Assembly: GCA_963840455.1 (NCBI GenBank)
Contig: CAWIYV010000004.1
Span: forward strand, 42,770-74,769
Source of the DNA: Nitrospirota bacterium
GTDB taxonomy: Bacteria > Nitrospirota > UBA9217
Length of the DNA: 32,000 nt
Reading direction: 5' to 3'
Below the pieces are notes generated by a model. That model had not been told where the DNA came from, did no database searches, and was given only the letters and a program-made list of their open reading frames with translations. The position numbers and the translations under genes are program-made. Positions 4,459 to 26,427 of the stretch are shown in pieces. Within the stretch, counting starts at the first letter, position 1. Every line of letters begins with the position of its first letter.

Positions 4459-4543
4459 ACCGCAGAGTTCGCTGAGACCGCTGAGTTTTGACGCTTTTTA
4501 AATATCAGATCTATTTCTCTGCGTGCTCTGCGCTCTCAGCGGT
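4459..4543. repeat. Inverted-pair NNCGCNGAG element, copy A (strict)
   Basis: Left arm 4459-4485 ACCGCAGAG-TTCGCTGAG-ACCGCTGAG; right arm 4517-4543, reverse complement ACCGCTGAG-AGCGCAGAG-CACGCAGAG; 31-nt centre. Confidence 0.9.
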
Positions 4544-4622
4544 ATATCTCGTTCCATCTTAACGTCTTACGCCTTATGCTGTTTCTATTCCGTAATCTAA
4601 AATCTGCAATCCGCAATGCTGC

Positions 4623-5531
4623 CTATTCTTCTTCAATGATCCCGACGTTCCTGAGCATCCGGTTGTCGTCACGCCAGCCCTTCTTCACCTTCACCCAGAG
4701 CTGGAGGAACACCTTCACTCCCAGGAGCTTTTCCGCATCCAGCCGCGCCCGGGTGCCGATCTCCTTCAGCAGGGCGCCGTTCTTGCCGATGACGATCCCC
4801 TTCTGCGAATCGCGGTCCACGAAGATGGTGGCATCGATGCGCGTCAGGCCCGGCTCCTCCTTCACCTGGTCGATCATCACTGCCGTGGAGTACGGGATCT
4901 CCTCCTTGGTGAGCTCGAAGATCTTTTCGCGGATGATCTCGGAGACAACGAACCGCTCCGGCTGGTCCGTCAGCTGGTCGTCGGGAAAGTACTTTGGCCC
5001 CTTGGGCATCCGCTTCAGGAGGGCGTCCACAAGGCCGCCCAGGTCCTGCTTCAGGGCCGATACGGGGATGATCTCGGCAAAGGAGTAGAGCGTGCTGTAT
5101 TCCTGCATGAGCGGCAGGAGCCGCTCCTTGTTGATGAGGTCCACCTTGTTGATGATCAGCAGGACCGGGGTCCTGACCTTTGCAAGGGAGTCGATGATGA
5201 AGCGGTCACCGCCTCCCGGCTTCTCCGTGGCCTCCACGAGCAGCATGATGACGTCCACTTCGCTGTACGTGCCAAGCGCCATGTTCACCATGATCTCGTT
5301 CATCTTATGCAGCGGTTTGTGGATGCCCGGCGTGTCGATAAACACCAGCTGGGCGTCCGGCCGGCTCAGGATGCCGCGAATGCGATTCCGCGTGGTCTGG
5401 GGTTTGTCGGAAATGATGGATATTTTCTCGCCCAGGAGGCAGTTCATGAGCGTGGACTTGCCCACGTTCGGCCTTCCGATGATAGCGATGAAGCCGGATC
5501 GGAAATCCCTCTCGTTCTTCGCCTCAGTCAT
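4623..5531 (-). CDS. era: GTPase Era
   Basis: GRPNVGKSTLMNCLLGEKISIISDKPQTTRNRI, DTPGIH, NKVD, C-terminal KH-like IVIGKNGALLKEIGTRAR. ORF is open to 5711, but the canonical start is the ATG at 5531 (MTEAKNERDFRSG). Confidence 0.95.
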   Translation of the reverse strand: MTEAKNERDFRSGFIAIIGRPNVGKSTLMNCLLGEKISIISDKPQTTRNRIRGILSRPDAQLVFIDTPGIHKPLHKMNEIMVNMALGTYSEVDVIMLLVEATEKPGGGDRFIIDSLAKVRTPVLLIINKVDLINKERLLPLMQEYSTLYSFAEIIPVSALKQDLGGLVDALLKRMPKGPKYFPDDQLTDQPERFVVSEIIREKIFELTKEEIPYSTAVMIDQVKEEPGLTRIDATIFVDRDSQKGIVIGKNGALLKEIGTRARLDAEKLLGVKVFLQLWVKVKKGWRDDNRMLRNVGIIEEE

Positions 5532-6026
5532 GGCGGTAGCATACCCGAAAGAGGCATGCGACGCAAGAAAAAGCGGATCTCTTGTTGGGCAACACGGGGG
5601 GAGGTGGGAAAAGCAACTGCAACGACCTTGGTTATGGCAGTTCCAAAAGCCCCTGCAGCCCGTGAGCACTGACGATGCGTAGGCATGCGTCACAGAAGCA
5701 TGGCAAATCACCGCGTCGTTTCCAGCACGCGCGTCAGCGGAAGTGCTGAGGATAGGACAGAGCGGACAAGAAAACCGCGGACAAACTGCATGCCTGCAGC
5801 GCAGTGCGAATGGGCTGCAGAAAAAAGGAGATTTGCTTTTTTGGGCAGCCCGGGCTGCTGGAAAGGCAAAGGCTTACGTCTTTACCCAAACTCCGCAGGT
5901 CTCACCGGAGCGGACCTACACCCTGCCTTGCGATGCCGCGGGTGCAAGAGATTGAAGCTCTCTGCTCCTGGTCTTCTCCATGTCTCAATGGTCATCCTCT
6001 CTTCTGCCCGACATTTTAAATATCAT

Positions 6027-6056
6027 TTGACAATCTCCCGACGTTATCGGTATTAT
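6027..6056 (+). promoter_or_regulatory. Candidate sigma70 promoter for nadA
   Basis: TTGACA (6027-6032), 18-nt spacer, TATTAT (6051-6056). Confidence 0.55.
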
Positions 6057-6066
6057 CAACCTACCT

Positions 6067-7053
6067 ATGACCGACCAGACCGTCATCCGCGAACGGATCA
6101 TCAGGCTCAAGAAGGACCTGAACGCCATCATCCTGGCCCACAATTACCAGCGGCCCGAGGTCCAGGACATCGCGGACATCACCGGCGATTCGCTTGAGCT
6201 CTCCCGCGCCGCTGCACGGACGGACTTCAAGGTCATCGTGTTCTGCGGCGTCCATTTCATGGCCGAGAGCGCCTCCATCCTCTCGCCCGACAAGACCGTG
6301 CTGCTGCCTGAGATCACGTCGGGCTGTCCCATGGCGGACATGATCACCGTGGATGGCCCCCGCACAACAAAGCGGGATCTTTTCCGGGAGCTCTACGGCG
6401 TCACTTTTCAGTTCGCCGATGAATTCACGCTCCTGGACATCAAGCGGCAGCATCCCGGTGTTCCCGTGGTCGCCTACGTGAACACCTCGGCAGCAGTCAA
6501 GGCGGAGAGCGACATCTGCTGCACCTCGTCAAATGTGGTGAAGGTCGTCGAGTCCCTGAAGGAAGATACCGTCATCTGCGTCCCCGACCGGAACCTCTCG
6601 GCTTACGCTGCCAAGCGTACGAAGAAGAAGATCATCTCCTGGGACGGGTTCTGCAACGTCCATCAGGTCCAGCTCACTATGGACGACGTGACGCACGCCA
6701 AGTCCGAACACCCCAAAGCACTGCTCGTGGTCCATCCCGAATGCCCTCCCGGGATCCAGGACCTTGCTGACCACATCACCAGCACCTCCGGCATGCTGCG
6801 CTATTGCAAGGAGTCGCCCAACAAGGAGTTCATCATTGGAACCGAGGAAGGCCTCCTTCACCGGCTGAAGAAGGAAAGCCCGGACAAACGGTTTTATCTT
6901 CTCTCCCGCAAGATGGTCTGCCCGAACATGAAGCGCACGAAGATCGAGAGCGTCCTCACGGCCATGGAGAAGATGCAGTACGTCATCAAGGTGCCGGACG
7001 AGATCCGTGTCAGGGCAAAGCGGGCGCTGGACCGGATGCTGGAGATCACATAG
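6067..7053 (+). CDS. nadA: Quinolinate synthase
   Basis: [58 protein letters not shown]; complete protein of 328 aa. Confidence 0.96.
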
Positions 7054-7056
7054 TGC

Positions 7057-7148
7057 TGACGCGGAGAAACGGGGACAGGGAGACAGGGGGACAAAAGCAC
7101 GCCACTTCAATCATCCCTCTCCGCGTCACCGCGTCACCGCGTTCTCCC
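7057..7148. repeat. GACGCGG-type inverted repeat pair between nadA and rmuC
   Basis: Left TGACGCGGAGAAACGGGGACAGGGAGACAGGGGGAC (7057-7092); right arm carries 8-nt tandem CCGCGTCA CCGCGTCA CCGCGTTC (7121-7144). Confidence 0.55.
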
Positions 7149-7162
7149 GTCGAGATTTAACC

Positions 7163-8290
7163 ATGCTCACTGCCATCCTCATACTCCTCGCCGTCACTCT
7201 GCTGGTCCTGATCTGGTTCATCTTCCAGTCGCAGAAGCGTACTGCGGATCCGGCCGTCTCGCTCCTCCAGCAGGAGGTCCAGTCGCTGCGCGGCCAGCTC
7301 TCGGACGCCATGATCAAGAGTCAGGACGCGGTGAACCATCAGCTTGTCCACGTCGTGCAGCAGGTGAACTCGCAGCTCGGGCAGGTCACCTCACAGGTGA
7401 ACACGCGGCTCGGCCAGGTCACCGATCAGCTTCAGAAGTCCACGGGGGACCTCAATACGCGGCTGGACAACGCGGCAAAGGTCGTTTCCGAGGTGAGCAA
7501 GGGTCTGGGCGGGCTGTCCGAAGCAACGAAGAAGGTCTTCGAGGTGGGCAAGGACATAGCGAGCCTGCAGGAGATCCTGCGCTCGCCCAAGCTCCGGGGC
7601 GGCCTCGGCGAGCTGTTCCTGGGCGACCTGCTGGCCCAGATCCTGCCGCCCGCCCACTTCACGCTGCAGCACCGGTTCAAGAGCGGTGAGGCCGTGGACG
7701 CGGTCATCCGGCTCGGCCAGAACCTGGTGCCCGTAGACGCGAAGTTCCCGCTCGAGAACTTCCGGCGGGTCATTGAGGTTTCTTCGGAAGAGGAGCGGAA
7801 GGCGGCGAAGCGGAAGTTTCTGGCCGACGTAAAGAAACATGTTGACGCGATCAGCGGTAAGTATATCCTGCCGGACGAGGGTACGTTCGACTTCGCCCTC
7901 ATGTACATCCCGGCGGAGAACGTATACTACGAACTGATCATCAAGGACGAGGCCATGGACTCGGACAAGGGCCTGCTCAACTACTCATTCGCCAAGCGGG
8001 TCATCCCGGTCTCGCCGAACAGCTTCTATGCCTACCTTCAGACGATCCTCCTCGGCCTGAAGGGACTGCACATCGAAGAGCGGGCCCAGGAGATCCTGAC
8101 CAATCTTGCCCGTCTTTCAGGCGACTTCCGGAAGTTCCGGGAGGAATTTGATACGGTGGGAAAGCATATCACGAACACGAAGTCGCGTTACGATGACGCC
8201 GACAAACGGCTCGAAAAGTTCAGTGACAAGCTTGAGTCTCTTAGTGAAGCCTCCCCCGCCATCGAGGAGACCCGGAAGCTACCGCTCTAG
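7163..8290 (+). CDS. rmuC: DNA recombination protein RmuC family
   Basis: N-terminal TM helix plus coiled coil, then RGGLGELFLGDLLAQILPP, VDAKFPLENFRR, LPDEGTFDFALMYIPAENVYYELI. Start assigned to ATG at 7163 (MLTAILILLAVTLLVLIWF) rather than the ORF start at 7007. Confidence 0.92.
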   Translation: MLTAILILLAVTLLVLIWFIFQSQKRTADPAVSLLQQEVQSLRGQLSDAMIKSQDAVNHQLVHVVQQVNSQLGQVTSQVNTRLGQVTDQLQKSTGDLNTRLDNAAKVVSEVSKGLGGLSEATKKVFEVGKDIASLQEILRSPKLRGGLGELFLGDLLAQILPPAHFTLQHRFKSGEAVDAVIRLGQNLVPVDAKFPLENFRRVIEVSSEEERKAAKRKFLADVKKHVDAISGKYILPDEGTFDFALMYIPAENVYYELIIKDEAMDSDKGLLNYSFAKRVIPVSPNSFYAYLQTILLGLKGLHIEERAQEILTNLARLSGDFRKFREEFDTVGKHITNTKSRYDDADKRLEKFSDKLESLSEASPAIEETRKLPL

Positions 8291-8340
8291 TGGTTGGAGT
8301 TGTTCCTGCGCCTTCTGCCTTCAGACCTCAGCCTCCTGCC

Positions 8341-8673
8341 TCAATGGTCATGGCCTGACGCGCTATGCCCTCCCGAGATCACATACACGGCCTCTGAGCC
8401 GGTCCTGTTCTCCGCAATGCACATTTCCTCTCCTTTGAGATGGATGGCCTGGCCCTGCTTCAGCGTCACCGTGACCGCTCCCGTTAAGGTCAGGCCGCCT
8501 GTTATAACCATGATCATCTCCTCGTGGCCCCTGCCCGGCCTCAGCTCGCGCCCCTTTTCGCCGGCCCTGAGCACGCCGTAGATAAGATAGCACGCGTGGC
8601 TGCCGGTCTCATCAAAACCCAGGATGTACTCCCCAGACCCCGCGATCCTGCTGGCCACTTCGAACACCTTCAT
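8341..8673 (-). CDS. Small cupin-domain protein
   Basis: Single-domain 110 aa protein with RPGRGHEEMIMVITGGLTLTG...LKQGQAIHLKGEE. Confidence 0.7.
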   Translation of the reverse strand: MKVFEVASRIAGSGEYILGFDETGSHACYLIYGVLRAGEKGRELRPGRGHEEMIMVITGGLTLTGAVTVTLKQGQAIHLKGEEMCIAENRTGSEAVYVISGGHSASGHDH

Positions 8674-8860
8674 ATACGCACCTCACTGACACCTCAATGA
8701 TGTCGATCACGTCACAACGACTCTATCACAGGATATAGCATAGTGCAATACAGCGAAGGTACCGTTTGTCAGGTCCTGCCGCCCTGTGTGATGCGAGCAA
8801 GGTCCTTTTCATCTGGTTTGAGCTCTGGTACTATGACATGGCCAGAATGAGGAGGGAACA

Positions 8861-9472
8861 ATGGCAGCAACGACTGATGCCGGAGAACGGAAGGCCTGGG
8901 AGACCCTGGCAACGCTCAAGACTGCCGACGTTTGCAGGGCAGCGGCCGTGAGCTATGATGCTGCGTCGGGGCTCTATACGGTCAGGTCGTTCGGACAGGA
9001 CATCGTTGTATCGCCAAAGTACCGGACGGTGTCGGGCTTGCTTCCGGTGACCGGCTGCCTTCCCGGCGAATACGGGGAATTGTTCCCGCTGGCGGTCCTC
9101 TGGTACCTGGTGCTCGCGAAGGACATTGTCCCAACGGGGAAGCTCGTCCACCTGGAGGACCTCCGCGGCGGGGACATCTTCGCCCGGGGGTCCCATGTAC
9201 TGCCGCTGGAAAAGGTGGCCAAAAGATACGAAAATGACCGGGAAGGCTTCCTGAAGAAAGGGCTTGATCAGGGAGGTGAAACAATTCCGCTCGCAGACGC
9301 GGCGGTCCGGCTCACCCCCCTGCCGCGCGTGCCAATGACCATGACGTTCTGGCTTGCCGACGAGGAGTTCCCGGCGCGGGCGGGACTCTTTTTTGATTCC
9401 ACCTGCAGTCTGCAGCTTCCCACCGACATCCTGTGGTCCCTTGCCAGGCTCTGCTGCCTCGCCCTGTTGTAA
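8861..9472 (+). CDS. DUF3786-like conserved hypothetical protein
   Basis: AWETLATLKTADVCRAAAVSYDAASGLYTVRSFGQDIVVSP...ATLKTADV...FPLAVLWYLVLAKDIVPTGKLVHLEDLRGGDIFARGSH...FDSTCSLQLPTDILWSL. Family assignment is from memory of the DUF3786 pattern. Confidence 0.65.
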   Translation: MAATTDAGERKAWETLATLKTADVCRAAAVSYDAASGLYTVRSFGQDIVVSPKYRTVSGLLPVTGCLPGEYGELFPLAVLWYLVLAKDIVPTGKLVHLEDLRGGDIFARGSHVLPLEKVAKRYENDREGFLKKGLDQGGETIPLADAAVRLTPLPRVPMTMTFWLADEEFPARAGLFFDSTCSLQLPTDILWSLARLCCLALL

Positions 9473-9476
9473 GCTC

Positions 9477-11306
9477 CTACATCTCCACCCGCGTTACCAC
9501 GCCGTGCAGTTTGTTCGCCGGAAGCTTGAAGAACTGCACGATGTTCGGCGTCAGCTTCTTGATGACCGAGAACGCCTGCCAGCAGATGTTCGTTGCCGTG
9601 ATGTCCTCGACCCCGTAGAAGATCGTCTTCTCCCTGATGTCCGCTTCCCGAAGGATCTCCTCCACGTCGGGGATCTCCATGTACCCCATCTGGATCTCGA
9701 AGGACCGGAGCCCCGGCGCAAGGTCCTCCTTGAAGTAGCCGGTCACGCCGAAGGGATCGTCACGCCGGACGATCGAGACGATGATATTGTCCTCGTAGAG
9801 GATGTTGTTCTTGAACATGGTGTGGACCACATAAGGGGGGATCTCTTTCGCGTCCTTGGCGAAGAACAGCGCCGTGCCGCTGATCTTGTTCACGGCCTGG
9901 TAGATCTGATTATAGCTCAGCAGGAACACATCCAGCTGCAGCGGCTGGAGCGCATTATAGAGCTTCTTCTGTCCCCGCGTGTACAGCATGATCATGCTGA
10001 ACGGCATCGAAGCGATGATGAGCGACCAGAACCCGCCGTGGGGGATCTTGTAGGTGTTGGACACGAGGAAGGCAATGTTCACCACGGTCACGAAGATCGA
10101 AACGGCAGCGTGCCCGTATTTCCCGCGACGCAGGAAGATCCAGGTCATCATGAAACCGGTCAGCGTCATGGTCCCCGTGACCGCCAGGCCGTAAGCTGCC
10201 GCCAGGTTGCTCGACCGCTGGAACTCGAACATGATGAACAGCACGGCGATCAGCAGGAACCAGTTGACGGACCCGATGTAGATCTGCGACTGGCGCTCGC
10301 GTGAAGTGTAGTCGATCCTGAACATGGGCATGACGCGGGTGGCGATGCCCTGGTACACGATGGAGAACATGCCGCTGATCATGGCCTGCGATGCAATGAC
10401 CGTGGCCATGATGCTGAGCACCAGGAACGGGATGTAGAGCGGCCGGGCCTGGTTGAACACCATTTCGAACAGCACGTTCTTGGCATCGGGATGGGCGATG
10501 ACGAAGGCGCCCTGACCCAGGTAGTTGATGATCAGTGCGAAGAACACGAAGTACCATGCACGGACGATGGGCGCCCTGCCCAGATGCCCCATGTCGGCAT
10601 ACAGCGCCTCGCCTCCCGTGGCGCAGAGGATGACCTCGGACAGGACAAAGAACCCGGTGATACCGTGATCCACCAGGAAGTTGACCGCATAGTACGGATT
10701 GACGGCCAGGACGACGTACGGGGCGTGGATAATGGACGCGAGACCGGACAGCGTGAGCGCCGCGAACCAGACGATCATGATCGGGCCGAACGCCGCAGCC
10801 ACCTTCTCCGTTCCCTTTTTCTGGACCGAGAAGAGGGCGATGGCTATGAGGCCGGCGATGGCGATCAGGGCCGCCTGTTTGGTCTCCTCGAGCCCCGGGA
10901 TCAGGAGCAGGCCTTCCACGGCGCTCAGGATACTGATTGCAGGAGTAATGACGCCGTCGCCGATGATGAGAGAGATGCCGATGAAGGAAAGCAGGGTGAT
11001 AAAGGTCACCTGCCTGCCGGACCGGAGGAGCGGGACGAGGATCTCCCGCAGCACGATCGTGCCGCCCTCGCCCCGGTGGCCGAGACTCATGGCAAGCCAG
11101 GCGTACTGGACCGTGACCAGGAGGATGAGTGTCCAGACGATGAGCGACAGGACACCGACCACATGCTCATCTGTTACCGGCTTCGGCATCAGCAGGAAGA
11201 TGACCGTGAGGGTGTAGATGGGGCTTGTGCCGATGTCGCCGAACACCAGGCCGAGCGACTGAACGATGCCGCGGAGAGAGATTTTTTTCTTCGTCATAGC
11301 GCCCAT
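9477..11306 (-). CDS. kup: KUP-family potassium transporter
   Basis: LGLVFGDIGTSPIYTL, GEGGTIVLREIL, LIIGDGVITPAISILSAVEG, GGEALYADMGHLGRAPI; 609 aa. Confidence 0.95.
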   Translation of the reverse strand: MGAMTKKKISLRGIVQSLGLVFGDIGTSPIYTLTVIFLLMPKPVTDEHVVGVLSLIVWTLILLVTVQYAWLAMSLGHRGEGGTIVLREILVPLLRSGRQVTFITLLSFIGISLIIGDGVITPAISILSAVEGLLLIPGLEETKQAALIAIAGLIAIALFSVQKKGTEKVAAAFGPIMIVWFAALTLSGLASIIHAPYVVLAVNPYYAVNFLVDHGITGFFVLSEVILCATGGEALYADMGHLGRAPIVRAWYFVFFALIINYLGQGAFVIAHPDAKNVLFEMVFNQARPLYIPFLVLSIMATVIASQAMISGMFSIVYQGIATRVMPMFRIDYTSRERQSQIYIGSVNWFLLIAVLFIMFEFQRSSNLAAAYGLAVTGTMTLTGFMMTWIFLRRGKYGHAAVSIFVTVVNIAFLVSNTYKIPHGGFWSLIIASMPFSMIMLYTRGQKKLYNALQPLQLDVFLLSYNQIYQAVNKISGTALFFAKDAKEIPPYVVHTMFKNNILYEDNIIVSIVRRDDPFGVTGYFKEDLAPGLRSFEIQMGYMEIPDVEEILREADIREKTIFYGVEDITATNICWQAFSVIKKLTPNIVQFFKLPANKLHGVVTRVEM

Positions 11307-11485
11307 CCCGGCAGGGCCCCCTTGAGATAGTGGAACACCTGGACCCTACCGTTCAACCGGCCAGCCACGTAGATGCGGTCGTTCCCATCGATGGCGATCC
11401 CCGCCGGGAGAGGAAAATATCCTGACCGGGGCCCAAACTGCCCGATAATGAGCAGAACATTCCCCTGATGGTCAAATTTGAACAT
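11294..11485 (-). pseudogene. C-terminal remnant of an NHL-repeat beta-propeller protein
   Basis: MFKFDHQGNVLLIIGQFGPRSGYFPLPAGIAIDGNDRIYVAGRLNGRVQVFHYL matches about one to one-and-a-half NHL blades. In-frame stop codon at 11504-11506 upstream, no signal peptide and no further blades. Confidence 0.6.
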
Positions 11486-11646
11486 TGCTGAAGGCCGCGT
11501 CGGTCACGATACTGGACAGTACCGCTATGAAGAATCGATTGTGGATCATATTGCAAAGGTATGCAGACAATGATCGACTGTTAGTATACCATAAAAACAG
11601 GTGTCCGCCTCTTACTTTCCAGGGTAATCCCGCAGAACACTGAAGA

Positions 11647-11780
11647 GTTAGCGCTCGCTCCTGGATTTAAGCTCCCTGCTGCAAGAGGCATGGAGCTTCG
11701 ATCCTCAGAGAACTCTGTTATTCTAATCGCTCGCTGGCCCCGCGGCAGACTGCGGGGAATGCGCTCGCTCCTGGATTTAA
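11647..11780. repeat. Palindromic interspersed repeat, locus 1
   Basis: 20-bp direct repeat GCGCTCGCTCCTGGATTTAA at 11651-11670 and 11761-11780; AAGCTCC/GGAGCTT hairpin (11669-11698); ATTCTAATCGCTCGCT (11720-11735); CCCCGC/GCGGGG hairpin (11738-11757). Confidence 0.8.
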
Positions 11781-11849
11781 GGTGAATTGTTGACTGCGAT
11801 GGCAGCTTCCCCGGGGCCATCGACCATCGCAGTACCGGTAAATATGTTC

Positions 11850-11878
11850 TTGACAGGCTATGCGATATTCGTTTAAAT
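11850..11878 (+). promoter_or_regulatory. Candidate sigma70 promoter upstream of the multiheme cytochrome gene
   Basis: TTGACA (11850-11855), 17-nt spacer, TTAAAT (11873-11878). Confidence 0.4.
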
Positions 11879-16901: not shown

Positions 16902-17370
16902 TCTCGATCTCCTGGATCTCGTATTCCACGGTCTTGGCAGGCGTGGTGATGGTCACCACGTCGCCCACCTTGTGGCCGATGAGCGCCTTGCCCACGGGCG
17001 ACTGCACCGAGATCTTGCCTTTTTTCAGGTCGGCCTCTTCCTGGCCCACCAGGGTGTACTTCCTGATATCGCCGGATGACCTGTCCGCAAGCGTAACCGT
17101 CATGCCGAACACGACCTTTTCGTTCGTCAGTTTCGAGACATCGATGATCTGGGCGTGGGCAAGCTTGTGCTCCAGCTCGCGCTTCTTGGCGTCGATGTGG
17201 CCCTGGCGCTCCTTCGCAGCGTGGTACTCGGCGTTCTCCGAGAGGTCGCCATGTCCCCGGGCCTCCTCGATGTCCCTGATGTTCTTGGGGCGCTCCACTT
17301 TCATCAGGTGGTCGAGCTCCTTCTTGATCTTTTCGTAGCCCTCTCTGGTCATCGGAACTTTCTTGGTCAT
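16888..17370 (-). CDS. greA: Transcription elongation factor GreA
   Basis: [57 protein letters not shown] and [21 protein letters not shown]. Confidence 0.97.
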
Positions 17371-20300
17371 CGCTGTTGATACTCCTGAATGGATCGTACC
17401 TGGATCTGTTTCGCCTTGAGGGCCTCGATGCCGCGCACCGCCGCCTTGGCGGCGGACATGGTCGTAAAATACGGGATGCCCTGCGTCAGGGTCGTACGCC
17501 GTATCGAGTAGGAGTCCTTCTGGGACTCCGCTCCGTACACCGTGTTGATCACCAGGTCAACCTGCCGGTCCTTGATGCTGTCGACGATGTGAGGACGGCC
17601 TTCGAACACCTTGTTCACCGTCTCGACGGCGACGCCGCGCTTGGTGAGGTACTCGGCCGTTCCGCGCGTGGCAACCAGCGAGAAGCCGGCCCTCTCGAGG
17701 CCCGAGGCGACCTCATAGGCCGCTGGTTTGTCCTTGTCCTTCACGCTGATGAAGACCCTGCCCGAGGTCGGCATGGGGTTCCCCGCCGCGATCTGGGACT
17801 TGGCGAAGGACATGCCGAAGTCCGTGTCGATGCCCATCACCTCGCCGGTGGATTTCATCTCCGGGCCGAGCAGTGTGTCCACACCCGGGAACTTGGCGAA
17901 GGGAAAGACCGCTTCCTTCACCGCCACATGCTTGATGTTCACGCTCTCCGTGAACCCGATCTCGGCCAGCGTCTTTCCCGCCATGACCCGTGCCGCGAGC
18001 TTCGCAAGCGGCACCCCGATGGCCTTGCTCACGAAGGGCACGGTCCGGGAGGCCCGGGGGTTGACTTCCAGGACGTAGATGAGGCGGTCCTTTACTGCAA
18101 ACTGGATGTTCATGAGCCCGACGACCTTCAGGTCCAGCGCGAGCGCTGTCGTCTGCCGGGCGATCTCCGCGATGATGTCCTTCGGCAGGGAGAAGGGCGG
18201 AAGCGAGCAGGCAGAGTCGCCCGAATGCACCCCGGCCTCCTCGATGTGCTCCATGATGCCGGCGACCACGACGGTTGTGCCGTCCGAGATCGCATCCACG
18301 TCGATCTCCACGGCATCCTCGAGGTAGCGGTCGACCAGCACCGGACGGTCCGGCGAGGCCTTCACCGCCCGGGTCATGTAGTTCCTGATGCTCTCCTCGT
18401 CGTAGACGATCTCCATGGCCCGGCCGCCGAGCACATAGGACGGCCGCACCATGACCGGGTAACCGATGCTGTTCGCGGCGTCCACGGCCTCATCGCACGA
18501 AACCGCCGTGCCGCTCTCGGCCTGGCGCAGGCCCAGCCGGTCCAGGAGCTCCTTGAACCGCTTCCGGTCCTCGGCACGGTCGATGCTGTCAGGCGACGTG
18601 CCCAGGATGCGCACGCCGAGCCGTTCCAGCGGCACCGCGAGCTTGAGCGGTGTCTGGCCGCCGAACTGAACGATGACGCCCATGGGCTTCTCGCGCTTTA
18701 TAATATGGTAAACATCCTCGAGAGTCAAGGGTTCGAAGTACAGGCGGTCCGAGGTATCGTAGTCCGTGCTCACGGTCTCGGGGTTGCAGTTCACCATGAT
18801 GGTCTCGTACCCGTCGTCCTTGAGGGCGAAGGCCGCGTGCACACAGCAATAGTCGAACTCGATGCCCTGGCCGATGCGATTCGGCCCGCCTCCCAGGATG
18901 ATGACCTTCTTCCGGTCCGTAGGCTCCGCCTCGCACTCGGCCGTTCCCTGCCCCTGCTGTTCCTGGCTCCCGGCCCCTGGACCTGGGACCCTGAAGAACG
19001 GCTTCTCATAGGTCGAATACAAATACGGAGTGTGCGCAACGAACTCGGCGGCGCAGGTGTCCACCTTCTTGAACACCGGAATGATGCCCATCTCCGTCCG
19101 GGCCTTGCGGACAGCGTCCTCGGTGGCGGTGATCAGCTTCGCGATCCGCCGATCTGAGAAGCCATACTCCTTGGCCATGCGGAGCGGATGATCGAGCGCG
19201 GGGATGCCGTTCGAGAGTATGCTCGCCCCGTTCTTTTTGATCTCCATTTCCCTATCAGTGATCTGTTTGATCTGGTGCAGGAACCAGGGGTCGATCTTCG
19301 AGAGGTTGAATATCTCGTCCACGGTCATTCCGGCGCGGAACCCGTCGGCAATGTACCAGAGCCGTTCCCAGTTCGGCACACTGATCTTTTGCCGGATGTC
19401 TGCGATCCCGTGCTCGATGTCGCCGTCGCGTTCGCGACGCGATTCGAGGCCGTAACGGTCGATCTCGAGGGAGCGGAGCGCCTTCTGGAGGGACTCCTTG
19501 AAGGTCCTGCCGATGGACATGGCCTCGCCCACGGACTTCATCTGCGTGGTCAGCGTGGCATCGGCCTGGGGGAACTTCTCGAAGGCGAAGCGGGGAAACT
19601 TCGTTACCACGTAGTCGATGGTCGGCTCGAAGGACGCAGGCGTGGCCTTGGTGATGTCGTTCAGGATCTCGTCGAGCGTGTACCCGACGGCGAGCTTGGC
19701 CGCGAACTTGGCGATCGGGAAGCCCGTGGCCTTGGAGGCCAGCGCGGAGCTCCGGGAAACGCGGGGGTTCATCTCGATCACGATCATCCTTCCGTTCTTC
19801 GGATCGACGGCGAACTGGATGTTCGACCCACCCGTATCCACACCGATCTCCCGGATGATCTTCAGCGACGCGTCGCGCATGATCTGGTACTCTTTGTCGG
19901 TCAGCGTCTGGGCCGGCGCCACGGTTATGCTGTCTCCGGTATGGATGCCCATGGGGTCGAGGTTCTCGATGGAGCAGACGATCACCACGTTGTCCTTGGC
20001 GTCGCGCATCACCTCGAGCTCGTACTCCTTCCAGCCGACCACGGATTCCTCGACCAGCACCTGGCGGACCGGGCTCGCGTCCAGTCCGCGGTTGATCAGT
20101 TCGGTGAACTCTTCCCGATTATAGGCGATGCCGCCTCCCGTGCCGCCGAGGGTGAAGGCAGGCCGGAGGATGGTCGGGAAGCCGACCTGTTCGAGGATCT
20201 CATAGGCCGTCTCCATGCTTGTGGCGAAACCGCTCTTGGGCACCAAAAGTCCGATGGCCTCCATGGCCGTCTTGAAGAGCTCGCGGTCCTCGGCCTTCTT

Positions 20301-20669
20301 GATGGCAGGGAGCTTGGCGCCGATGAGCTCGACCTTGTATTTCTCCAGCACGCCGGTCTCGGCAAGCGCGACCGCAGTGTTCAGTGCGGTCTGGCCGCCC
20401 ATGGTCGGCAGCAATGCGTCGGGCCGCTCGCGTTCGATGATCTTCTCGACGACGGCGGGAGTGATGGGCTCGATATACGTGCGGTGCGCCATCTCCGGAT
20501 CTGTCATGATCGTGGCCGGGTTCGAGTTTACCAGGACGATCTCGTAGCCCTCTTCCTTCAGCGCCTTGCAGGCCTGCACGCCTGAATAGTCGAACTCGCA
20601 GGCCTGGCCGATCACGATCGGCCCTGCGCCGATGATCAGGATCTTTTTGATGTCGGTTCGTTTCGGCAT
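17367..20669 (-). CDS. carB: Carbamoyl-phosphate synthase large subunit
   Basis: [44 protein letters not shown], two ATP-grasp halves, [23 protein letters not shown]-terminal MGS-like domain; 1100 aa. Confidence 0.98.
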
Positions 20670-20705
20670 TCACATACCTCACAAAAAAAATTCTAAACCT
20701 TTTTT

Positions 20706-20790
20706 AACGCAGAGGACGCCGAGTACGCGGAGAAGTGCCATGCCAATTCAAGGCTGTTCTTACCTCTGCGACCTCCGCGATCTCTGCGGT
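20706..20790. repeat. Inverted-pair NNCGCNGAG element, copy B (strict)
   Basis: Left arm 20706-20732 AACGCAGAG-GACGCCGAG-TACGCGGAG; right arm 20764-20790, reverse complement ACCGCAGAG-ATCGCGGAG-GTCGCAGAG; 31-nt centre. Confidence 0.9.
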
Positions 20791-20799
20791 GAAATTTAA

Positions 20800-21705
20800 T
20801 CACTCGAAGTTCTGCACCCAGCCGTTCTTCAATCCATACTTCATCTTGATGTCGTAGGCCTCGTCGTATTCTTGTTCACTGATCCGGCGGTTGATCTCGG
20901 GATGTTCCGCGGACTTGAACGCCGGAAAGTACTGCGACATGAGGCTGATGTACACATCTGCGGAGATCTCCGTTGCCAGGAATTTCATCACGGCTTCGGT
21001 CCCTGCCACACCATGGGGAAGCACCAGGTGCCTGACCAGGAGTCCGCGCTGCGCGATCCCGTGCTCATCCATGACCAGATTCCCTACCTGCCGGTACATC
21101 TCCTTGACCGCTGCCCGGTTCACCTCGACATAGTGCGGGGCCACGGAGTATCGCACGGCGGCCGCATTATCAGAGTACCGCATGTCCGGCATGTAGATAT
21201 CCACGATGCCGTCGAGCAGCTTGAGCATCTCCACGGAATCGTATCCGCTCGTGTTGTACACGATGGGCAGGTCGAAGCCCCGCTCCCGCGCGATGCCCAC
21301 CGCCTTCAGGATCTGGGGGACATAGTGCGTCGGGGTCACAAGGTTCAGGTTGTGGCAGCCCTGCTCCTGCATCCAGAGCATCTGGCAGGCCAGTTCCCCC
21401 GGCGTCCGCTCGGTGCCGTGTCCCATCTGGCTGATGGGATAGTTCTGGCAGTAGATGCAGCGGAGATTGCAGTTCGTGAAAAAGATCGTGCCCGAGCCTT
21501 TGATGCCCGAGAGCGGCGGTTCCTCGCCGTGGTGCGGGCTGACGCTCGCGATGGCCGGGTTGAGCCCCGAGCGGCAGAAGCCCAGCCTGCTGTCCTCGAG
21601 CCGGTTCACCCCGCACTCCCGGGGGCAGACAGTGCATTCCTCGAGATGACGGTACGCCGCCTCGATCCGAAGTTCCAGTTCTTCTTTTGAGATAACAACT
21701 GCCAC
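20800..21705 (-). CDS. Radical SAM protein, pyruvate formate-lyase-activating-enzyme-like (PflX/COG1313 type)
   Basis: GTIFFTNCNLRCIYCQNYPISQ (CX3CX2C), ECTVCPRECGVNR. ORF opens at TTG 21756 but its first codons fall in repeat copy C; GTG 21705 with GAAGAAGG upstream is preferred. Confidence 0.85.
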   Translation of the reverse strand: MAVVISKEELELRIEAAYRHLEECTVCPRECGVNRLEDSRLGFCRSGLNPAIASVSPHHGEEPPLSGIKGSGTIFFTNCNLRCIYCQNYPISQMGHGTERTPGELACQMLWMQEQGCHNLNLVTPTHYVPQILKAVGIARERGFDLPIVYNTSGYDSVEMLKLLDGIVDIYMPDMRYSDNAAAVRYSVAPHYVEVNRAAVKEMYRQVGNLVMDEHGIAQRGLLVRHLVLPHGVAGTEAVMKFLATEISADVYISLMSQYFPAFKSAEHPEINRRISEQEYDEAYDIKMKYGLKNGWVQNFE

Positions 21706-21721
21706 GGCCGAGCCTTCTTCA

Positions 21722-21798
21722 GCCACCGAGGTCACCGGGGTCACCGAGAAATTCAACGCGAGTGATTTTCTCTGTGTCCTCTGAGCGCTCTCTGCGGC
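21722..21798. repeat. Inverted-pair NNCRCNGAG element, copy C (variant)
   Basis: Left arm 21722-21748 GCCACCGAG-GTCACCGGG-GTCACCGAG; right arm 21770-21798, reverse complement GCCGCAGAG-AGCGCTCAGAG-GACACAGAG. Confidence 0.7.
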
Positions 21799-21807
21799 AA
21801 GGAGAAT

Positions 21808-22926
21808 TTATTTATGTTTTTCCATCATGTCCACAAAACGCTGGAACAGGTACCTGCTGTCGTGCGGTCCCGGCGACGACTCGGGGTGGTACTGGACGGA
21901 GAAGGCCGGCAGGGTCTTGTGCTGGATGCCCTCGCACGTCCTGTCGTTCAGGTTCATGTGGGTCATCTCCACGTGTTCCTTCACCGACTCCATGTCCACG
22001 GCGAAGCCATGGTTCTCGGCTGCGATCTCGACCTTGCGCGTCGTCAGGTCCATGATCGGCTGATTCCCGCCGCGGTGGCCGAACTTGAGCTTGTAGGTCC
22101 TCCCGCCGAGCGCCAGGCCCAGGAGCTGCTGGCCCAGGCAGATGCCGAAGATCGGTTTCTTGCCGAGGATCTTCTTGATGTTCTCGATGGCATAGGTCAC
22201 CGGCTCAGGATCTCCCGGACCATTCGAGAGAAACACCCCGTCTGGCTGCATGGCGAGCACCTCTTCCGCCGGCATGGTGGCAGGCACTACGGTGACATCG
22301 CAGCCCGCGCTCGTGAGCAGCCGCAGGATGTTCCGCTTGATGCCATAGTCGTAGGCCACGACCTTGTACCGCGACAGGGACTTCTTTCCGTAGCCGGTCT
22401 CGAGATCCCAGATGCCTTCGTCCCAGGCGTAAGGTTTTTTGCATGTAACGTCCTTTGCAAGGTCGAGTCCGTTCATCTTCGGCAGTTTCTTTGCTTTGGC
22501 GAATAAGCTCCCCGGGTCCAGGTCCTTCGTCGAGATGATCCCTGGCTGGGCGCCCACGTCGCGGATATGGCGCGTCAGTGCCCGCGTGTCGATGCCCTGG
22601 ATTCCTGCGATCTGATGCGCCTTCAGATAGGCGTCGAGCGATCGCTTCATCCGCCAGTTGCTCGGGAAGTCCAGGTACTCCTTCACGATGAACCCTTCCA
22701 CCTGTGGTTTCCCGGACTCCACGTCCTCGTCGTTCGTGCCATAGTTCCCGATCTGGGGATAGGTCATGGTGACGATCTGGCCCTTGTACGACGGGTCCGT
22801 CAGGATCTCCTGGTATCCCGTCATGCTGGTGTTGAAGACCACCTCGCCCGTGGCCTCGCCTTCCGCCCCGAAGGAGGAGCCTTCGAACACCATGCCGTCT
22901 GCCAATGCAAGGATCGCTTTTTTCAT
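21808..22926 (-). CDS. carA: Carbamoyl-phosphate synthase small subunit
   Basis: [41 protein letters not shown], class I amidotransferase [31 protein letters not shown]. Confidence 0.98.
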
Positions 22927-23023
22927 ATTCCACCTTCCCGCCTACCCCCCTGTCATCCCCCTTGGCAAGGGGGGAACGAGGGGGGTGCAATCCGCAATCA
23001 TTTTATATTGATAAACTTATTTT

Positions 23024-23109
23024 ACCGCTGAGCTCGCGGAGAACGCAGAGTTAATTCGTTATCTTGAATCAAGAATATATTTCTCAGCGCCCTCTGCGTC
23101 CTCTGCGGT
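23024..23109. repeat. Inverted-pair NNCGCNGAG element, copy D (strict)
   Basis: Left arm 23024-23050 ACCGCTGAG-CTCGCGGAG-AACGCAGAG; right arm 23083-23109, reverse complement ACCGCAGAG-GACGCAGAG-GGCGCTGAG; 32-nt centre. Confidence 0.9.
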
Positions 23110-23116
23110 GAAAGAA

Positions 23117-24013
23117 CTAGAATCTGTCTCGTATCTTGCCGTTCACATCCACTACTTCTCCGCTCACCTTTTCGCCGTCAACTGTCACATATACATAATG
23201 ATGGAATCCGCCGTCCTCGTCCTTCGCGTACAGCGGCGCTCCCCCGCCTCCGGCGATGATGTGGGGGATCCCGTCCACTGTTTTCCTGAGATACAGGTGC
23301 TCATGCCCCGCGAATACGGCCGTGACCTGGTGTTTCACAAAGAGCGCCTGCAGCCGGTCCCGGTCCTCTTTGTACCGGTCGAGGCTGTTCCCGTGATGCT
23401 TCCCTTTTCCCTTCTCGGGATAGAGCGGGTGATGGACAAAGACGAATGTATGCTTCTGCTTCGATGCGGCCAGGACCTGCTCCAGCCATTTGAACTGTTC
23501 GCCGGTGATCCGTTTATCCTCTCCCTTGATATAGGAATCGAGCACAACGAACAGCGAGTTCCCCCCGACGAAAGAGTAGTAGAGCTCGTTCCCGGGCAGG
23601 TCCACCTGCGCCTTGTAGATATCCTCGCTCCCCGCGACCTCCCCATGGATGTCATGGTTCCCCACCGTCAGGAAATAGGGAACAGCCACGCTCTTCGACA
23701 ACTCCCAGAACCGCTTCCAGTGTTCGATATTGCCCGGCTTGTCGATCTGGTCGCCGGTATTTACGATGAAGGCCGGCTTTCGTTCAAGCGCCGCAGCAAG
23801 CACCTTTTGATAGACCGCATCGCATGCCGGGTCGCCCGCGCGGTTGTCACCGAACACGACAAAGGAGAACTTCGAAGAAAGCTTCTCATGCGAGGCGAGC
23901 TTCTGCTGAAGCAGCTGATCCTGTGCCGCAATGCCATTCGTGATCGTTGCAAAAAAGATCAGAAGCGGTAGTAACGGTTTTATAATCCGCAATCCACGAT
24001 CCGAAATCCGCAA
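23117..24013 (-). CDS. Calcineurin-like metallophosphoesterase, exported or membrane-anchored
   Basis: VVFGDNRAG, NTGDQIDK, YFLTVGNHDIHG, GHEHLYLRK; N-terminal hydrophobic stretch. TTG start immediately after the pyrC stop, with GGAAGGAAG upstream. Confidence 0.88.
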   Translation of the reverse strand: MRISDRGLRIIKPLLPLLIFFATITNGIAAQDQLLQQKLASHEKLSSKFSFVVFGDNRAGDPACDAVYQKVLAAALERKPAFIVNTGDQIDKPGNIEHWKRFWELSKSVAVPYFLTVGNHDIHGEVAGSEDIYKAQVDLPGNELYYSFVGGNSLFVVLDSYIKGEDKRITGEQFKWLEQVLAASKQKHTFVFVHHPLYPEKGKGKHHGNSLDRYKEDRDRLQALFVKHQVTAVFAGHEHLYLRKTVDGIPHIIAGGGGAPLYAKDEDGGFHHYVYVTVDGEKVSGEVVDVNGKIRDRF

Positions 24014-25279
24014 TTAGATTCTTCCTTCCACAATCGTCCGCACGGCCTTCCCCTTCAATTTCCAGCCGTCGAACGGCGTGTTCTTCGACTTCGACAGGAA
24101 CTGCGAAGCATTCACGGTCCAGTCCAGGTCCGGGTCGATGATGGTGATGTCCGCTTCGGCTCCGACCGACAACATCCCGCCGCCGCTCTTGATGATCCGT
24201 GCAGGCGTCGTGCTCATACGGGTTATGAGGTCTGCCATCGAAAGGATGCCCTCCTGCACCAGTTTGAACGACAACCCGACGCTTGTCTCGAGCCCCACGA
24301 TACCGAAGGGCGCGGCGTCGAACTCCACCGACTTCTCGTCCAGGGCGTGGGGCGCGTGGTCCGTGGCGATCACGTCGAGCGTTCCGTCCTTGAGACCCTG
24401 CCTGATCGCCGCCACGTCATCGGCGGTCCGGAGCGGCGGGTTCATCTTTGCCATGGTATGGTACCCTCTCACTGCCTCGTCGGTGAGCGTAAAATAGTGC
24501 GGGCATGTCTCTGCGGTCACCTTGACGCCGCGCTGCTTTGCCTCGCGGATCATCCGGACGGAGCCTGCTGTGCTCACATGGCAGATATGGAGCCTCGCGC
24601 CGGTCAGTTCGGCAAGCTCGATGTCCCGGGCCGTCATCACGTCCTCGGCCGCGTTCGGAATGCCCCGGAGGCCGAGCTCCGTGGACACGAACCCTTCGTT
24701 CATAACGCCCTGTGCCGCGAGGCTTGCGTCCTCACAGTGCGAAATGACCGCGATGTCGAATATCGTAGAATATTCCATGGCTCGGCGCATGACCGCTGCC
24801 CTCATGACCGGTTTGCCGTCGTCGGAGATGCCTTTGCAGCCAGCCTCGTGCAGCTCGCCCATTTCGGCGAGTTCCTCGCCCTTTGAGCCTTTGGTGATGG
24901 CCCCGATGGGAAAGACCCGCGCCAAGGCCTTACTCGCCGCCTGGGAGAGGATGAACTCCGTCACCGACCGGGAATCGTTCACCGGGTTCGTGTTCGGCAT
25001 GCAGCAGACCGCCGTGAACCCGCCCGCCTTTGCCGCGGCAGTTCCGGTGGCAATGGTCTCCTTGTATTCGTATCCCGGCTCGCGAAGGTGGACGTGCATG
25101 TCGATCAAGCCCGGGACCACGAACTTGCCGCTCGCATCGATGATCTCTGCACCATTCGCTGGGAGTGAGCCCGGTTTGCCGAGCTTCGCGATCTTCCCGT
25201 CAGCGATGAGGAGATCGAGCTTCCCCTCCACCTTGTTCACGGGATCGATGATGTTGCCGTTCTTGATCAGTATATTCAT
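24014..25279 (-). CDS. pyrC: Dihydroorotase
   Basis: [74 protein letters not shown]. Start ATG 25279 ([13 protein letters not shown]). Confidence 0.97.
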
Positions 25280-25294
25280 AAACACACCTTTTTC

Positions 25295-25379
25295 ACCGCA
25301 GAGCACGCAGAGGTCGCAGAGTTTGGACCGTTAAGATCGGACCTTTCTCTTTCTCAGCGTTCTCAGCGATCTCCGCGGT
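25295..25379. repeat. Inverted-pair NNCGCNGAG element, copy E (strict)
   Basis: Left arm 25295-25321 ACCGCAGAG-CACGCAGAG-GTCGCAGAG; right arm 25353-25379, reverse complement ACCGCGGAG-ATCGCTGAG-AACGCTGAG; 31-nt centre. Confidence 0.9.
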
Positions 25380-25385
25380 AAATAA

Positions 25386-26315
25386 TTAGTTTTCTGCTTT
25401 TGTCCCGCCCGACAGCAGGAACATCACCGCCATGCGGACCGCAACGCCGTTCGTCACCTGGTCGAGGATGACCGAATGATGGTCCGCCACGTCGGAAGCG
25501 ATCTCCACGCCGCGGTTCATGGGACCGGGATGCATCACGATAGCGTTCTGTGCCGCCTGCTCAAGCCGCGCCCGGTTGAGGCCGAACAGCCGCGCGTATT
25601 CCCGCACGCCGGGAAAGAGCCCCGCGGCCTGGCGCTCGAGCTGGAGCCTGAGCGTCATGATGACGTCGGCGCCCCTGACCGCTTCGTCCATGTCGTAGAA
25701 GACCGGGACCCCCAGCTTCTCGATGCCCCTTGGAAGCATGGTCGGCGGGCCGCATACGCGGACCTTCGCGCCCATGGTCGTGAGCCCGTAGATGTTCGAA
25801 CGGGCGACGCGGCTGTGCAGGATGTCTCCCACAATGGCCACGGTGACCCCCTCGAGCCTGCCGTGCTTCTCGCGTATGGTGAACATGTCGAGGAGGGCCT
25901 GGGTCGGATGCTCGTGGAACCCGTCGCCGGCGTTGATCACCGAGCTCTTAAGCCGCTGCGCAAGGTACTCGGGCGCACCCGAGCAGGAATGGCGCACGAT
26001 GATCATGTCGCTCTTCATGGCCTCGATGTTCCGCGCGGTGTCGAGGAGCGTCTCGCCTTTCACCACGCTGGAGGTCGAGGTCGAGATGTTGATCACATCT
26101 GCCGAGAGCCGCTTGCCGGCCAGCTCGAAGGACGTCCGGGTCCTCGTGCTCGCCTCGTAGAAGAGGTTGATGACCGTCTTGCCGCGGAGCGCGGGCACCT
26201 TCTTGATGTCCCGCTCCGATACGTCCTTGAACGTGGCGGCGGTGTCGAGGATGAGCTTGATCTCCTCCGCGGCCATGCCTTTGATCCCGAGCAGGTCCTT
26301 TGAGCTGAGCGCCAT
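25386..26315 (-). CDS. pyrB: Aspartate carbamoyltransferase catalytic subunit
   Basis: [25 protein letters not shown]-like [44 protein letters not shown]. Confidence 0.97.
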
Positions 26316-26343
26316 GGCTTTCCTCTCACATCAACGGCAGTCT

Positions 26344-26427
26344 GCCACAGAGGACACCGAGCACATCATAGGCTGAAGAAAGCCATAAGATCCGATGTCG
26401 TTCGGCGACCTCGATGCTCTCTGTGGC
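26344..26427. repeat. Inverted-pair NNCRCNGAG element, copy F (variant) between pyrR and pyrB
   Basis: Left arm GCCACAGAG-GACACCGAG-CACATCATA (26344-26370); right arm 26401-26427, reverse complement GCCACAGAG-AGCATCGAG-GTCGCCGAA; 30-nt centre. Confidence 0.6.

Follow-up and report, generated by a model that had tools for sequence, protein, structure and literature searches.

Intervening sequences (IVS) of 23S rRNA with an open reading frame (ORF) for the S23p/four-helix-bundle protein have been described in Salmonella, Leptospira and Coxiella (Burgin 1990; Ralph & McClelland 1993; Warrier 2016, PMC4990558). In Coxiella, the IVS is a selfish element of 428 nt with the S23p ORF in its loop and a stem that is cut by RNase III; on its 5' side, just ahead of the ORF start, this stem carries GACAGAT as three tandem heptamers, the copy number of which varies by strain (PMC4990558). 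Here, we report on a family of hairpin elements found in a 32,000-nt stretch of DNA, hereafter called the window, from a Nitrospirota bacterium (assembly GCA_963840455.1, contig CAWIYV010000004.1, positions 42,770 to 74,769 of the forward strand), the 23S rRNA IVS being their closest known analogue. We show that the hairpins of the window belong to a family distributed across bacterial phyla and archaea, that arms of the same kind enclose genes for GxxExxY proteins and covary, that the elements are present or absent among related operons, and that they mostly start just past stop codons. We consider it likely that a selfish mini-element bounded by a hairpin, which in its full form carries a GxxExxY gene in the loop, is present here as ORF-less copies, namely these repeats and two CAC-type variants.

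As we read them, both the present elements and the IVS are selfish insertions transcribed inside a host RNA with terminal inverted repeats forming a long stem; both have tandem short repeats in this stem and a small loop ORF that is present or absent, both are lower in GC than the host and both show signs of horizontal transfer. They differ in their location, as the present elements lie in intergenic mRNA regions whereas the IVS occupy helix 25 or 45 of 23S rRNA; Rfam detects no rRNA in the window and the elements there sit between protein-coding genes. They also differ in the encoded protein, which is a PD-(D/E)XK nuclease (GxxExxY) instead of S23p, and in the repeat units, which are 9 nt long and of one conserved type across phyla whereas the arms of S23p elements are very diverse. 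Cleavage by RNase III has been experimentally shown for the IVS and is proposed for the present elements by analogy.

The short tandemly repeated repetitive (STRR) sequences of cyanobacteria are intergenic tandem heptamers. The same holds for the TAACTGA repeats of Beggiatoaceae (PMC4679880). Both resemble the present elements in having tandem units of 7-9 nt, in lying in intergenic regions near start or stop codons and inside operons, in being scattered over phyla and in being suspected to be mobile. However, what has been described for them are direct repeats, with hardly any inverted partner and without a linked gene, whereas the present units are arranged in inverted pairs, folding into a hairpin with a centre or an ORF in between. 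These heptamers may be related to the elements described here.

Hairpin elements of the window and of related pyr operons

The elements and the operon in which most of them reside are as follows (positions are those of the window).

4459..4543, no strand given, strict ORF-less hairpin, arms ACCGCAGAG TTCGCTGAG ACCGCTGAG plus inverted partner, centre 31 nt; between era (4623-5711, minus strand) and a VTT/DedA gene (3788-4414, minus strand)
20706..20790, no strand given, strict ORF-less hairpin, centre 31 nt; 9 nt past the stop codon of the radical-SAM gene (20800-21756, minus strand) and ending 36 nt ahead of the carB start (20669)
23024..23109, no strand given, strict ORF-less hairpin, centre 32 nt; upstream of carA and starting 7 nt past the stop codon of the metallophosphoesterase gene (23117-24013, minus strand)
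25295..25379, no strand given, strict ORF-less hairpin, centre 31 nt; 6 nt past the pyrB stop codon (25386) and ending 15 nt ahead of the pyrC start (ATG 25279, minus strand)
21722..21798, no strand given, degenerate variant with CAC-N-GAG/GGG units; between carA and the radical-SAM gene
26344..26427, no strand given, degenerate variant with CACNGAG units; between pyrR (26468-27037, minus strand) and pyrB (25386-26315, minus strand)
17367..27037, minus strand, host pyr operon, pyrR-pyrB-pyrC-metallophosphoesterase-carA-radical SAM-carB (Pfam assignments of the ORFs)

Direct reading of the sites confirms the four strict copies with the coordinates and the anatomy claimed in the original prediction, which had been made from the DNA letters. 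Each is 85-86 nt long and consists of two inverted arms of 3 x NNCGCNGAG, laid out as a 27-nt arm, a centre (31, 31, 32 and 31 nt) and a second 27-nt arm. All 24 of the 24 9-nt units match the consensus, and the arms of each copy agree with each other at 20 of 27 positions, the mismatches being restricted to unit positions 1, 2 and 6, as had been stated. Searching the window with the arm pattern CGCNGAGNNCGCNGAGNNCGCNGAG at 0 mismatches retrieves exactly 8 arms making up four inverted pairs, compared to a mean of 0.01 matches in 100 dinucleotide shuffles. The centres are essentially unrelated, in line with the earlier claim: when compared to shuffles, copies 1 and 4 align clearly above background and copies 1 and 3 marginally, while the other pairs do not. 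The two CAC-unit variants exist as well but are degenerate. On the mRNA strand, the elements of the window have predicted folding energies of -30 to -43 kcal/mol and z-scores between -3.3 and -5.7.

The arms of the four strict copies differ at 27 of the 28 inner variable positions, which leaves far fewer agreements than expected from the family background (P ~1e-5 to 1e-4). A hand check of two of the four copies showed that these differences are mostly true mismatches on the mRNA strand, not G-U pairs.

Three of the four strict copies begin 6-9 nt past the stop codon of the upstream cistron, unlike the copy at 4459..4543, which lies 79 nt from a stop codon. Five of the six intercistronic junctions of the pyr operon carry a hairpin element, and the sixth, between pyrC and the metallophosphoesterase gene, has tandem heptamers. 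The mechanically called ORF of pyrC begins at a GTG (25306) inside the hairpin, whereas relatives place the true start at the ATG at 25279 on the minus strand.

The best database relatives of CarA are at most 93% identical and their named sources are mostly Nitrospirota. We compared five related pyr operons (L221-L225; CarA 86-93% identical) junction by junction. The element between the metallophosphoesterase gene and carA is absent from all four relatives having this junction (L221, L222, L223 and L225), the fifth (L224) being without the metallophosphoesterase gene. At this junction the closest relative, L221, reads 'ttc tga ttgcggattgc' and the window 'ttc tag ttctttcac[hairpin]gtaaaataagtttatcaatataaaa tga ttgcggattgc', a difference that represents an insertion at the stop codon and the one clean pair of a filled and an empty site among these comparisons. 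The carA/radical-SAM junction carries hairpins with 8-nt CACNAAG and CACGGAG units in L221 and L223 and none in L222 and L225, and the other junctions of the relatives show either nothing or other tandem units, e.g. 8-nt CACNAAG, CACGGAG, GGGTCAGG, GCGTAAGG and GGTAAGAAG. Between pyrC and the metallophosphoesterase gene L221 has a PDDEXK_3 gene, flanked by arms of CGCAAAAAG-type units, and no such gene is found there in the window. The gene order of the pyr operon is conserved among the relatives, including those without hairpins. These comparisons indicate that hairpins are gained, lost and replaced much faster than the genes diverge, and, as close relatives either are without the element or have unrelated hairpins at the same junctions, that no pyr junction needs it.

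Distribution across bacteria and archaea

A scan of one genome per species for an ACCGC-led arm followed by a gap of 20-45 nt and the inverted arm returned at least 119 loci with the full architecture, spanning over ten bacterial phyla and ANME-1 (anaerobic methanotrophic) archaea. The hairpins are a genuine repeat family, as had been proposed. Among the loci listed are members of the Planctomycetota, Acidobacteriota, Verrucomicrobiota, Chloroflexota, Nitrospirota, Gemmatimonadota and Bacteroidota, of the Desulfuromonadales and other delta-proteobacteria, of Sulfuricella (beta) and the Zetaproteobacteria, and of the Calditrichia, Latescibacterota, Ignavibacteriota and Thermoleophilia; three are from isolates (Geothrix limicola, Pelagicoccus mobilis and Planctomycetales ZRK34). 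Three of the loci, with strict copies, come from archaeal bins assigned to ANME-1/Methanophagales or Methanosarcinales (L066 4054-4144, L070 and L119). The element of L066 adjoins a gene for an archaeal tRNA Cm56 methyltransferase scoring above the curated equivalog cut-off; this contig is therefore archaeal, and the family crosses the boundary between bacteria and archaea.

The centre lengths in these genomes fill the whole range of 20-45 nt searched. The fixed-length centre of the original prediction thus holds true for the window (31-32 nt) and is a local feature of it, not one of the family. The claimed extension into the flanks stands and is found family-wide: the strict copies of the window are flanked by TTnAC ... 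GTnAA, and in a sample of 126 copies T is present at position -5 in 98 and at position -4 in 93. The left-hand base at flank position -3 (51 A, 48 C and 25 T among the 126 copies) covaries with its counterpart on the right (pairing 0.63 versus 0.41 expected). In the same sample, pairing at the N positions of the arms is no higher than predicted by base composition, except for position 3 and flank position -3, and a subset of 26 copies has near-perfect arms agreeing at 5-7 of 7 positions, with 7.6 copies expected.

The elements are intergenic, as predicted. Of the gaps containing copies, 46 are co-directional, 10 convergent and 3 divergent, compared to 253, 73 and 87 background gaps; divergent gaps are depleted (3/59 versus 21% of the background, P = 7e-4). 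Target-site duplications were not detected in 124 copies at boundary offsets of 0-11 nt and lengths of 2-8 nt. All-against-all BLAST of the ORFs from the 119 loci revealed no recurrent neighbouring gene family such as a transposase, the maximum being 8 loci per family for generic ATPases. Rfam covariance models give no match on the elements at gathering thresholds, and at E<=5 two chance-level matches in the window, both off the elements; full-text literature searches brought up nothing that describes the arms or links them to GxxExxY genes. As far as these searches of Rfam and the literature go, the elements belong to no described family, in agreement with the earlier assessment.

Gene-bearing copies, the encoded nuclease and related hairpins

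Arms without a nearby partner led us to longer, gene-bearing versions of the element. At a Sulfuricella locus (L027), arms at 2632-2656 and 3054-3078 enclose a single 125-aa ORF in the trpC/trpD gap, which is identified as TIGR04256 'GxxExxY protein' (E = 5e-42). A second locus (L123) shows the bracketing down to the codon, reading ctctcACCGCGGAGGACGCAGAGGACGCGGAG-gaaaaac-ATG ... TAG-tttttc-CTCCGCGTCCTCTGCGTCCTCCGCGGTgagag with outer flanks ctctcAC...GTgagag, and a GxxExxY gene is also directly bracketed by the arms in L133. To remove the bias of the DNA pattern, 80 metagenome loci were fetched by protein similarity alone. In this sample, most GxxExxY genes are flanked by inverted arms with 2-4 tandem units of ~9 nt following NN-C[G/A]C-N-[G/A]AG, a simple regular expression retrieving arm pairs for about 56 of the 80 genes. 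Both arms are of the same unit type with respect to CGC/CAC in 69 of 73 elements (P ~1e-14) and with respect to GAG/AAG in 71 of 73 (P ~1e-16), an agreement that represents compensatory change at paired triplets. The arm type tracks protein similarity (37 of 55 nearest neighbours versus 19.8+-3.8) and does not track the GC content of the flanks. The cargo has a GC content of 0.50 compared to 0.58 for the flanks.

In 39 of 46 cases (P = 2e-6), the GxxExxY gene has the same orientation as its upstream neighbour; in gene-bearing forms, the left arm mostly begins 1-15 nt past the stop codon of this neighbour. In most cases the last arm unit ends 0-13 nt ahead of the start codon, placing the GGAG/GAGG inside the arm at the position of a ribosome-binding site.

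In L027, a gene-bearing and an ORF-less copy agree at 12 of the 14 N positions; background pairs average 5.7, and 0.2% of them reach at least 12. This pair and the finding that the same arms bracket GxxExxY genes support that the copies of the window are ORF-less members of the GxxExxY-linked family; their centres of 31-32 nt and the lack of a GxxExxY homologue in the 32-kb window place them among the ORF-less, not the autonomous, members. A delta-proteobacterial locus (L053) contains a dense array of at least five near-identical ORF-less copies within 700-6000, and a sister family made of CACNGAC units (gcCACGGACccaCACGGACgaaCACAGAC) is nested with them; here, arms of 9-nt units on the left are paired with arms of 8-nt units (CTTTGCGt) on the right. 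An arm-gene-[arm-loop-arm] order is present in L024 (5024-5587) and on the megaplasmid of Gemmatirosa kalamazoonensis (L290 1440-1975), the GxxExxY gene being apparently frameshifted in both. The last arm of L024 is closer to the distant first arm than to the adjacent one (5 versus 2 of 7 N positions), which would allow two alternative pairings. In a contig classed as viral (L001 10430-10620), a CGCNGAG hairpin has a centre of 141 nt enclosing a hairpin of CGCAGAT units (gccgcagataaacgcagat ... ttcatctgcgttcatctgcggc).

GxxExxY proteins belong to PF13366 (PDDEXK_3)/TIGR04256, comprise ~125 aa and have a PD-(D/E)XK nuclease fold, the conserved residues D67, E77 and K79 of the alignment forming the D...ExK motif. 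The AlphaFold model reaches a predicted local distance difference test score of 84 and a predicted template modelling score of 0.78. Its best matches in the PDB obtained with Foldseek are nucleases of the lambda-exonuclease and Cas4 (SSO0001) type, which are weak (E ~2e-3) and reflect a generic nuclease fold; a sequence search of the PDB with the GxxExxY profile yielded no solved relative. The sole paper we found that classifies PDDEXK_3 places it under 'function unknown', records it from both prokaryotes and viruses and describes multiple transfers between divisions (PMC3424549). The family comprises at least 8000 clusters among the matches listed, and the same number applies to S23p. Plasmids were rejected as carriers, GxxExxY being found in 6 of 72,556 plasmid records, none of them predicted to be mobilizable.

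A comparable arrangement is found for S23p. The S23p sample was obtained with a consensus query, the validity of which is borne out by PF05635 being present in all matches listed, and included 64 viral-contig loci (L226-L289). For 34 of 54 distinct S23p (PF05635) genes the inverted flanks score above the 95th percentile of mismatched controls, and the arms consist of visibly tandem 6-9 nt units of many sequences, e.g. GGAGTAG, GTAGTCT, GTAGGCT, GGGCTTT, GAGTGGA, CGGCGTT and ATTGGGA. No S23p homologue is present in the fetched genome loci. Taken together, the results for GxxExxY, the Coxiella IVS and S23p show that a small ORF in a hairpin with tandem-repeat arms is a general design, and the elements of the window are the ORF-less state of its GxxExxY branch.

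The window contains further repeats.

7057..7147, no strand given, sister-type hairpin, tandem 8-nt units CGCGGAGA/CAGGGAGA versus TCTCCGCG/TCACCGCG
23984-24014, tandem heptamers (AATCCGC)x4.4 at the pyrC/metallophosphoesterase junction, reading ATTGCGG on the operon strand

The hairpin at 7057-7147 immediately follows a plus-strand ORF, the stop codon of which lies at 7051-7053, and has the same design with a different unit. The AATCCGC heptamers recur at several pyr-operon junctions of related Nitrospirota (L222, L223 and L224), where gene callers take them as the 5' end of the next gene; they may be lone arms or belong to a heptamer-repeat family of their own. A palindrome rich in C/G, ACCCCCCTGTCATCCCCCTTG / CAAGGGGGGAACGAGGGGGGT, located at 22944-22986 just upstream of carA, is kept in the closest relative L221 and absent from L222 and L223, and could be another inserted hairpin or a leader structure of carA.

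Proposed mechanism, competing explanations and implications

We propose a model in which the element consists of TTnAC, three 9-nt units NN-CGC-N-GAG, a centre or an ORF, three inverted units and GTnAA, the CGC/GAG triplets of one arm pairing with GCG/CTC of the other and the N positions being unconstrained. It would insert shortly past the stop codon of a host gene, in most cases where the two neighbouring genes are co-directional, and this position suggests that it is transcribed within the host mRNA, here that of the pyr operon. In the RNA, the arms would form an interrupted stem of ~30 bp, which may be cut or trimmed by RNase III as shown for the 23S rRNA IVS; by this analogy, we give processing by RNase III nearly even chances. 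In the gene-bearing form, the stem would hide the ribosome-binding site formed by GGAG/GAGG of the last units until ribosomes terminating upstream open it, a mode of occlusion that we regard as quite possible, though with a little less confidence than processing. ORF-less copies would be non-autonomous or decayed and could spread by means of a putative GxxExxY copy elsewhere, the nuclease starting copying at the DNA level; that the spread of both gene-bearing and ORF-less copies depends on the nuclease in this way is a tentative proposal about which we are rather doubtful. The copies of the window are most likely non-autonomous or decayed passengers of the pyr mRNA. They would persist in an essential operon because the mismatches at nearly every N position weaken the stem: the differences at 27 of 28 positions suggest, for four copies, selection for an interrupted stem, perhaps blunting cleavage by RNase III or palindrome instability.

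Several observations weigh against the reading of the window repeats as ORF-less copies of a GxxExxY element. In L021 (6181-6761), downstream of ilvC, a hicA/hicB pair (6275-6714, minus strand) lies between CGCNGAG arms, which argues that GxxExxY is not an obligatory cargo; a degenerate right arm adjoins the left arm at this locus. A GxxExxY homologue is lacking in the 32-kb window, and the PDDEXK_3 gene of the closest relative has the different arms of CGCAAAAAG-type units. The copies of the window have different centres of shared length, disagree at almost every N position and turn over fast among relatives; the divergent N positions and centres imply that they are not recent copies of one another, and a simple amplification in the manner of miniature inverted-repeat transposable elements (MITEs) does not explain the combination of shared centre length, divergent sequence and fast turnover. 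The great diversity of S23p arm units speaks against sequence-specific recognition by the encoded protein as a general property of the class. Regarding the family statistics, the invariance of CGC and GAG in the 126 copies was imposed by the search pattern, and genes at the loci were called by a crude ORF rule, many apparent ORF overlaps being over-extended ORF starts or ends.

An explanation compatible with a selfish origin, and making it secondary, is that the hairpins are structured RNAs selected by the host as intercistronic processing or stability signals, similar to the repetitive extragenic palindromic (REP) sequences and bacterial interspersed mosaic elements of E. coli, setting the relative expression of the pyr genes. 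This is favoured by the position of three of the four copies 6-9 nt past stop codons inside one operon and by the stable predicted folds on the mRNA strand; the uniform 31-32-nt centres of unrelated sequence and the mismatches at 27 of 28 N positions both suggest selection on architecture. However, close relatives are without the element or have unrelated hairpins at the same junctions, it occurs in hundreds of unrelated gene contexts and phyla, and no Rfam model matches it, so that we judge host selection as the primary explanation to be unlikely. Attenuation of the PyrR type was ruled out by the copy between era and the DedA gene and by the cross-phylum distribution. A similarly low probability is assigned to the ~85-nt hairpin being the primary mobile or target unit, into the loop of which GxxExxY, hicAB or S23p would enter as secondary cargo, for example by nuclease-initiated homing with the arms as homology. 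This would account for different cargo (GxxExxY and hicAB) between the same arms, for ORF-less copies outnumbering gene-bearing ones by ~21 to 3 in the unbiased flanks of fetched loci, for the arm-gene-[arm-loop-arm] order of L024 and Gemmatirosa and for the nested copies of L053. Gene and arms travelling together, as in the mini-element that we favour, would by contrast be expected to yield an arm type following the GxxExxY phylogeny, as observed; the gene moreover abuts the arms within a few nt on both sides with the ribosome-binding site inside the arm, and no filled and empty pair with the same arms was found at one site.

Among the options of the original prediction, a mobile REP-like element is closest to the evidence, yet the resemblance does not extend to the defining features of REP elements. 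Of its other options, a nuclease-processing site is plausible given the cleavage of 23S rRNA IVS by RNase III, and a target for a protein binding at several sites is conceivable. REP sequences and their hairpin-forming doublets (REPINs) are, like the present elements, short extragenic palindromic repeats in multiple copies, often intercistronic and free of target-site duplications, and in both cases the repeats of the many gene-less copies also flank a protein-coding 'master'. The present elements are, however, without a GTAG head, ending in TTnACCGC, and their arms are tandem repeats lacking internal dyad symmetry, whereas the REP unit is an imperfect palindrome; their gene encodes a PD-(D/E)XK fold (PDDEXK_3) and not the HUH Y1 transposase of the IS200/IS605 type known as RAYT (REP-associated tyrosine transposase), in accordance with the absence of a recurrent neighbouring family in the 119 loci; and they span phyla and both prokaryotic domains, while REP families are specific to a species or genus. 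Mobilisation as a REP/REPIN by a RAYT is thus highly improbable. MITEs share with the present elements the occurrence of short gene-less and longer gene-bearing copies with common termini in one genome (L027 and L053), but differ in that the present elements show neither a target-site duplication (124 copies) nor a DDE transposase and are dissimilar in centres and N positions in the window. The arrangement of five elements in one pyr operon headed by pyrR, with fixed and free motif positions as in a protein-binding site, might point to arrays of 9-bp operator sites for a symmetric regulator of pyrimidine genes; we attach equally little credence to this proposal, as one copy lies between era and the DedA gene and other loci are in unrelated contexts, as the elements follow stop codons and avoid divergent gaps containing promoters, and as related pyr operons do without them. 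Scarcely more probable are intrinsic terminators or integron attC sites, which would fit strong hairpins after genes and the cassette-like order of the operon with one gene followed by one hairpin; the flanks xAAC...GTTx resemble the R''/R' cores of attC in about 40% of copies. Yet GTG and GTA replace GTT in about 60%, the attC core RYYYAAC ... GTTRRRY is not matched, and the operon is a conserved housekeeping operon with its order kept in relatives without hairpins. On both strands there is a T-run ahead of the stem and an A-run, but no U-tract, past it, so that the elements are not canonical terminators, and a terminator scan calls none of them. The arms were also considered as coding xAE repeats, a reading ruled out by stop codons in the centres, the fixed third base of 'NNC' and the location of the arms outside Pfam-supported genes.

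The element of the window is not a new regulatory RNA of the pyr operon, but a local sample of a very widespread mini-element tied to GxxExxY. Going further, the hairpins and GxxExxY genes might constitute an unrecognised class of mobile elements of bacteria and archaea, with the ~125-aa PD-(D/E)XK nuclease as mobility enzyme recognising the arms of 9-nt units and with the element acting as an unspliced 'intervening sequence' of mRNA that RNase III removes or tames; sister branches would be the elements of the 23S rRNA IVS/S23p type and perhaps also the cyanobacterial and Beggiatoaceae heptamers, and selection in the window would have kept only copies with stems interrupted at every free position. 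We put this forward as a speculative scheme which, taken as a whole, is less likely to be right than wrong.

The link to the IVS raises the interest of the hairpins above that of an ordinary REP-like repeat. Few unexplained small genes of environmental genomes are as common as those for GxxExxY and four-helix-bundle (S23p) proteins, and the nature and movement of the 23S rRNA IVS has been a standing question since 1990. Since both gene families are found in tandem-repeat hairpins, gene-less hairpins of the same families are abundant in operons, and one arm type is common to Nitrospirota and ANME-1, this question becomes testable outside rRNA. Gene callers are misled by the hairpins into over-extending start codons, pyrC being an example here. 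The hairpins probably also influence how operon mRNAs are processed, and they can be used as markers of horizontal transfer.

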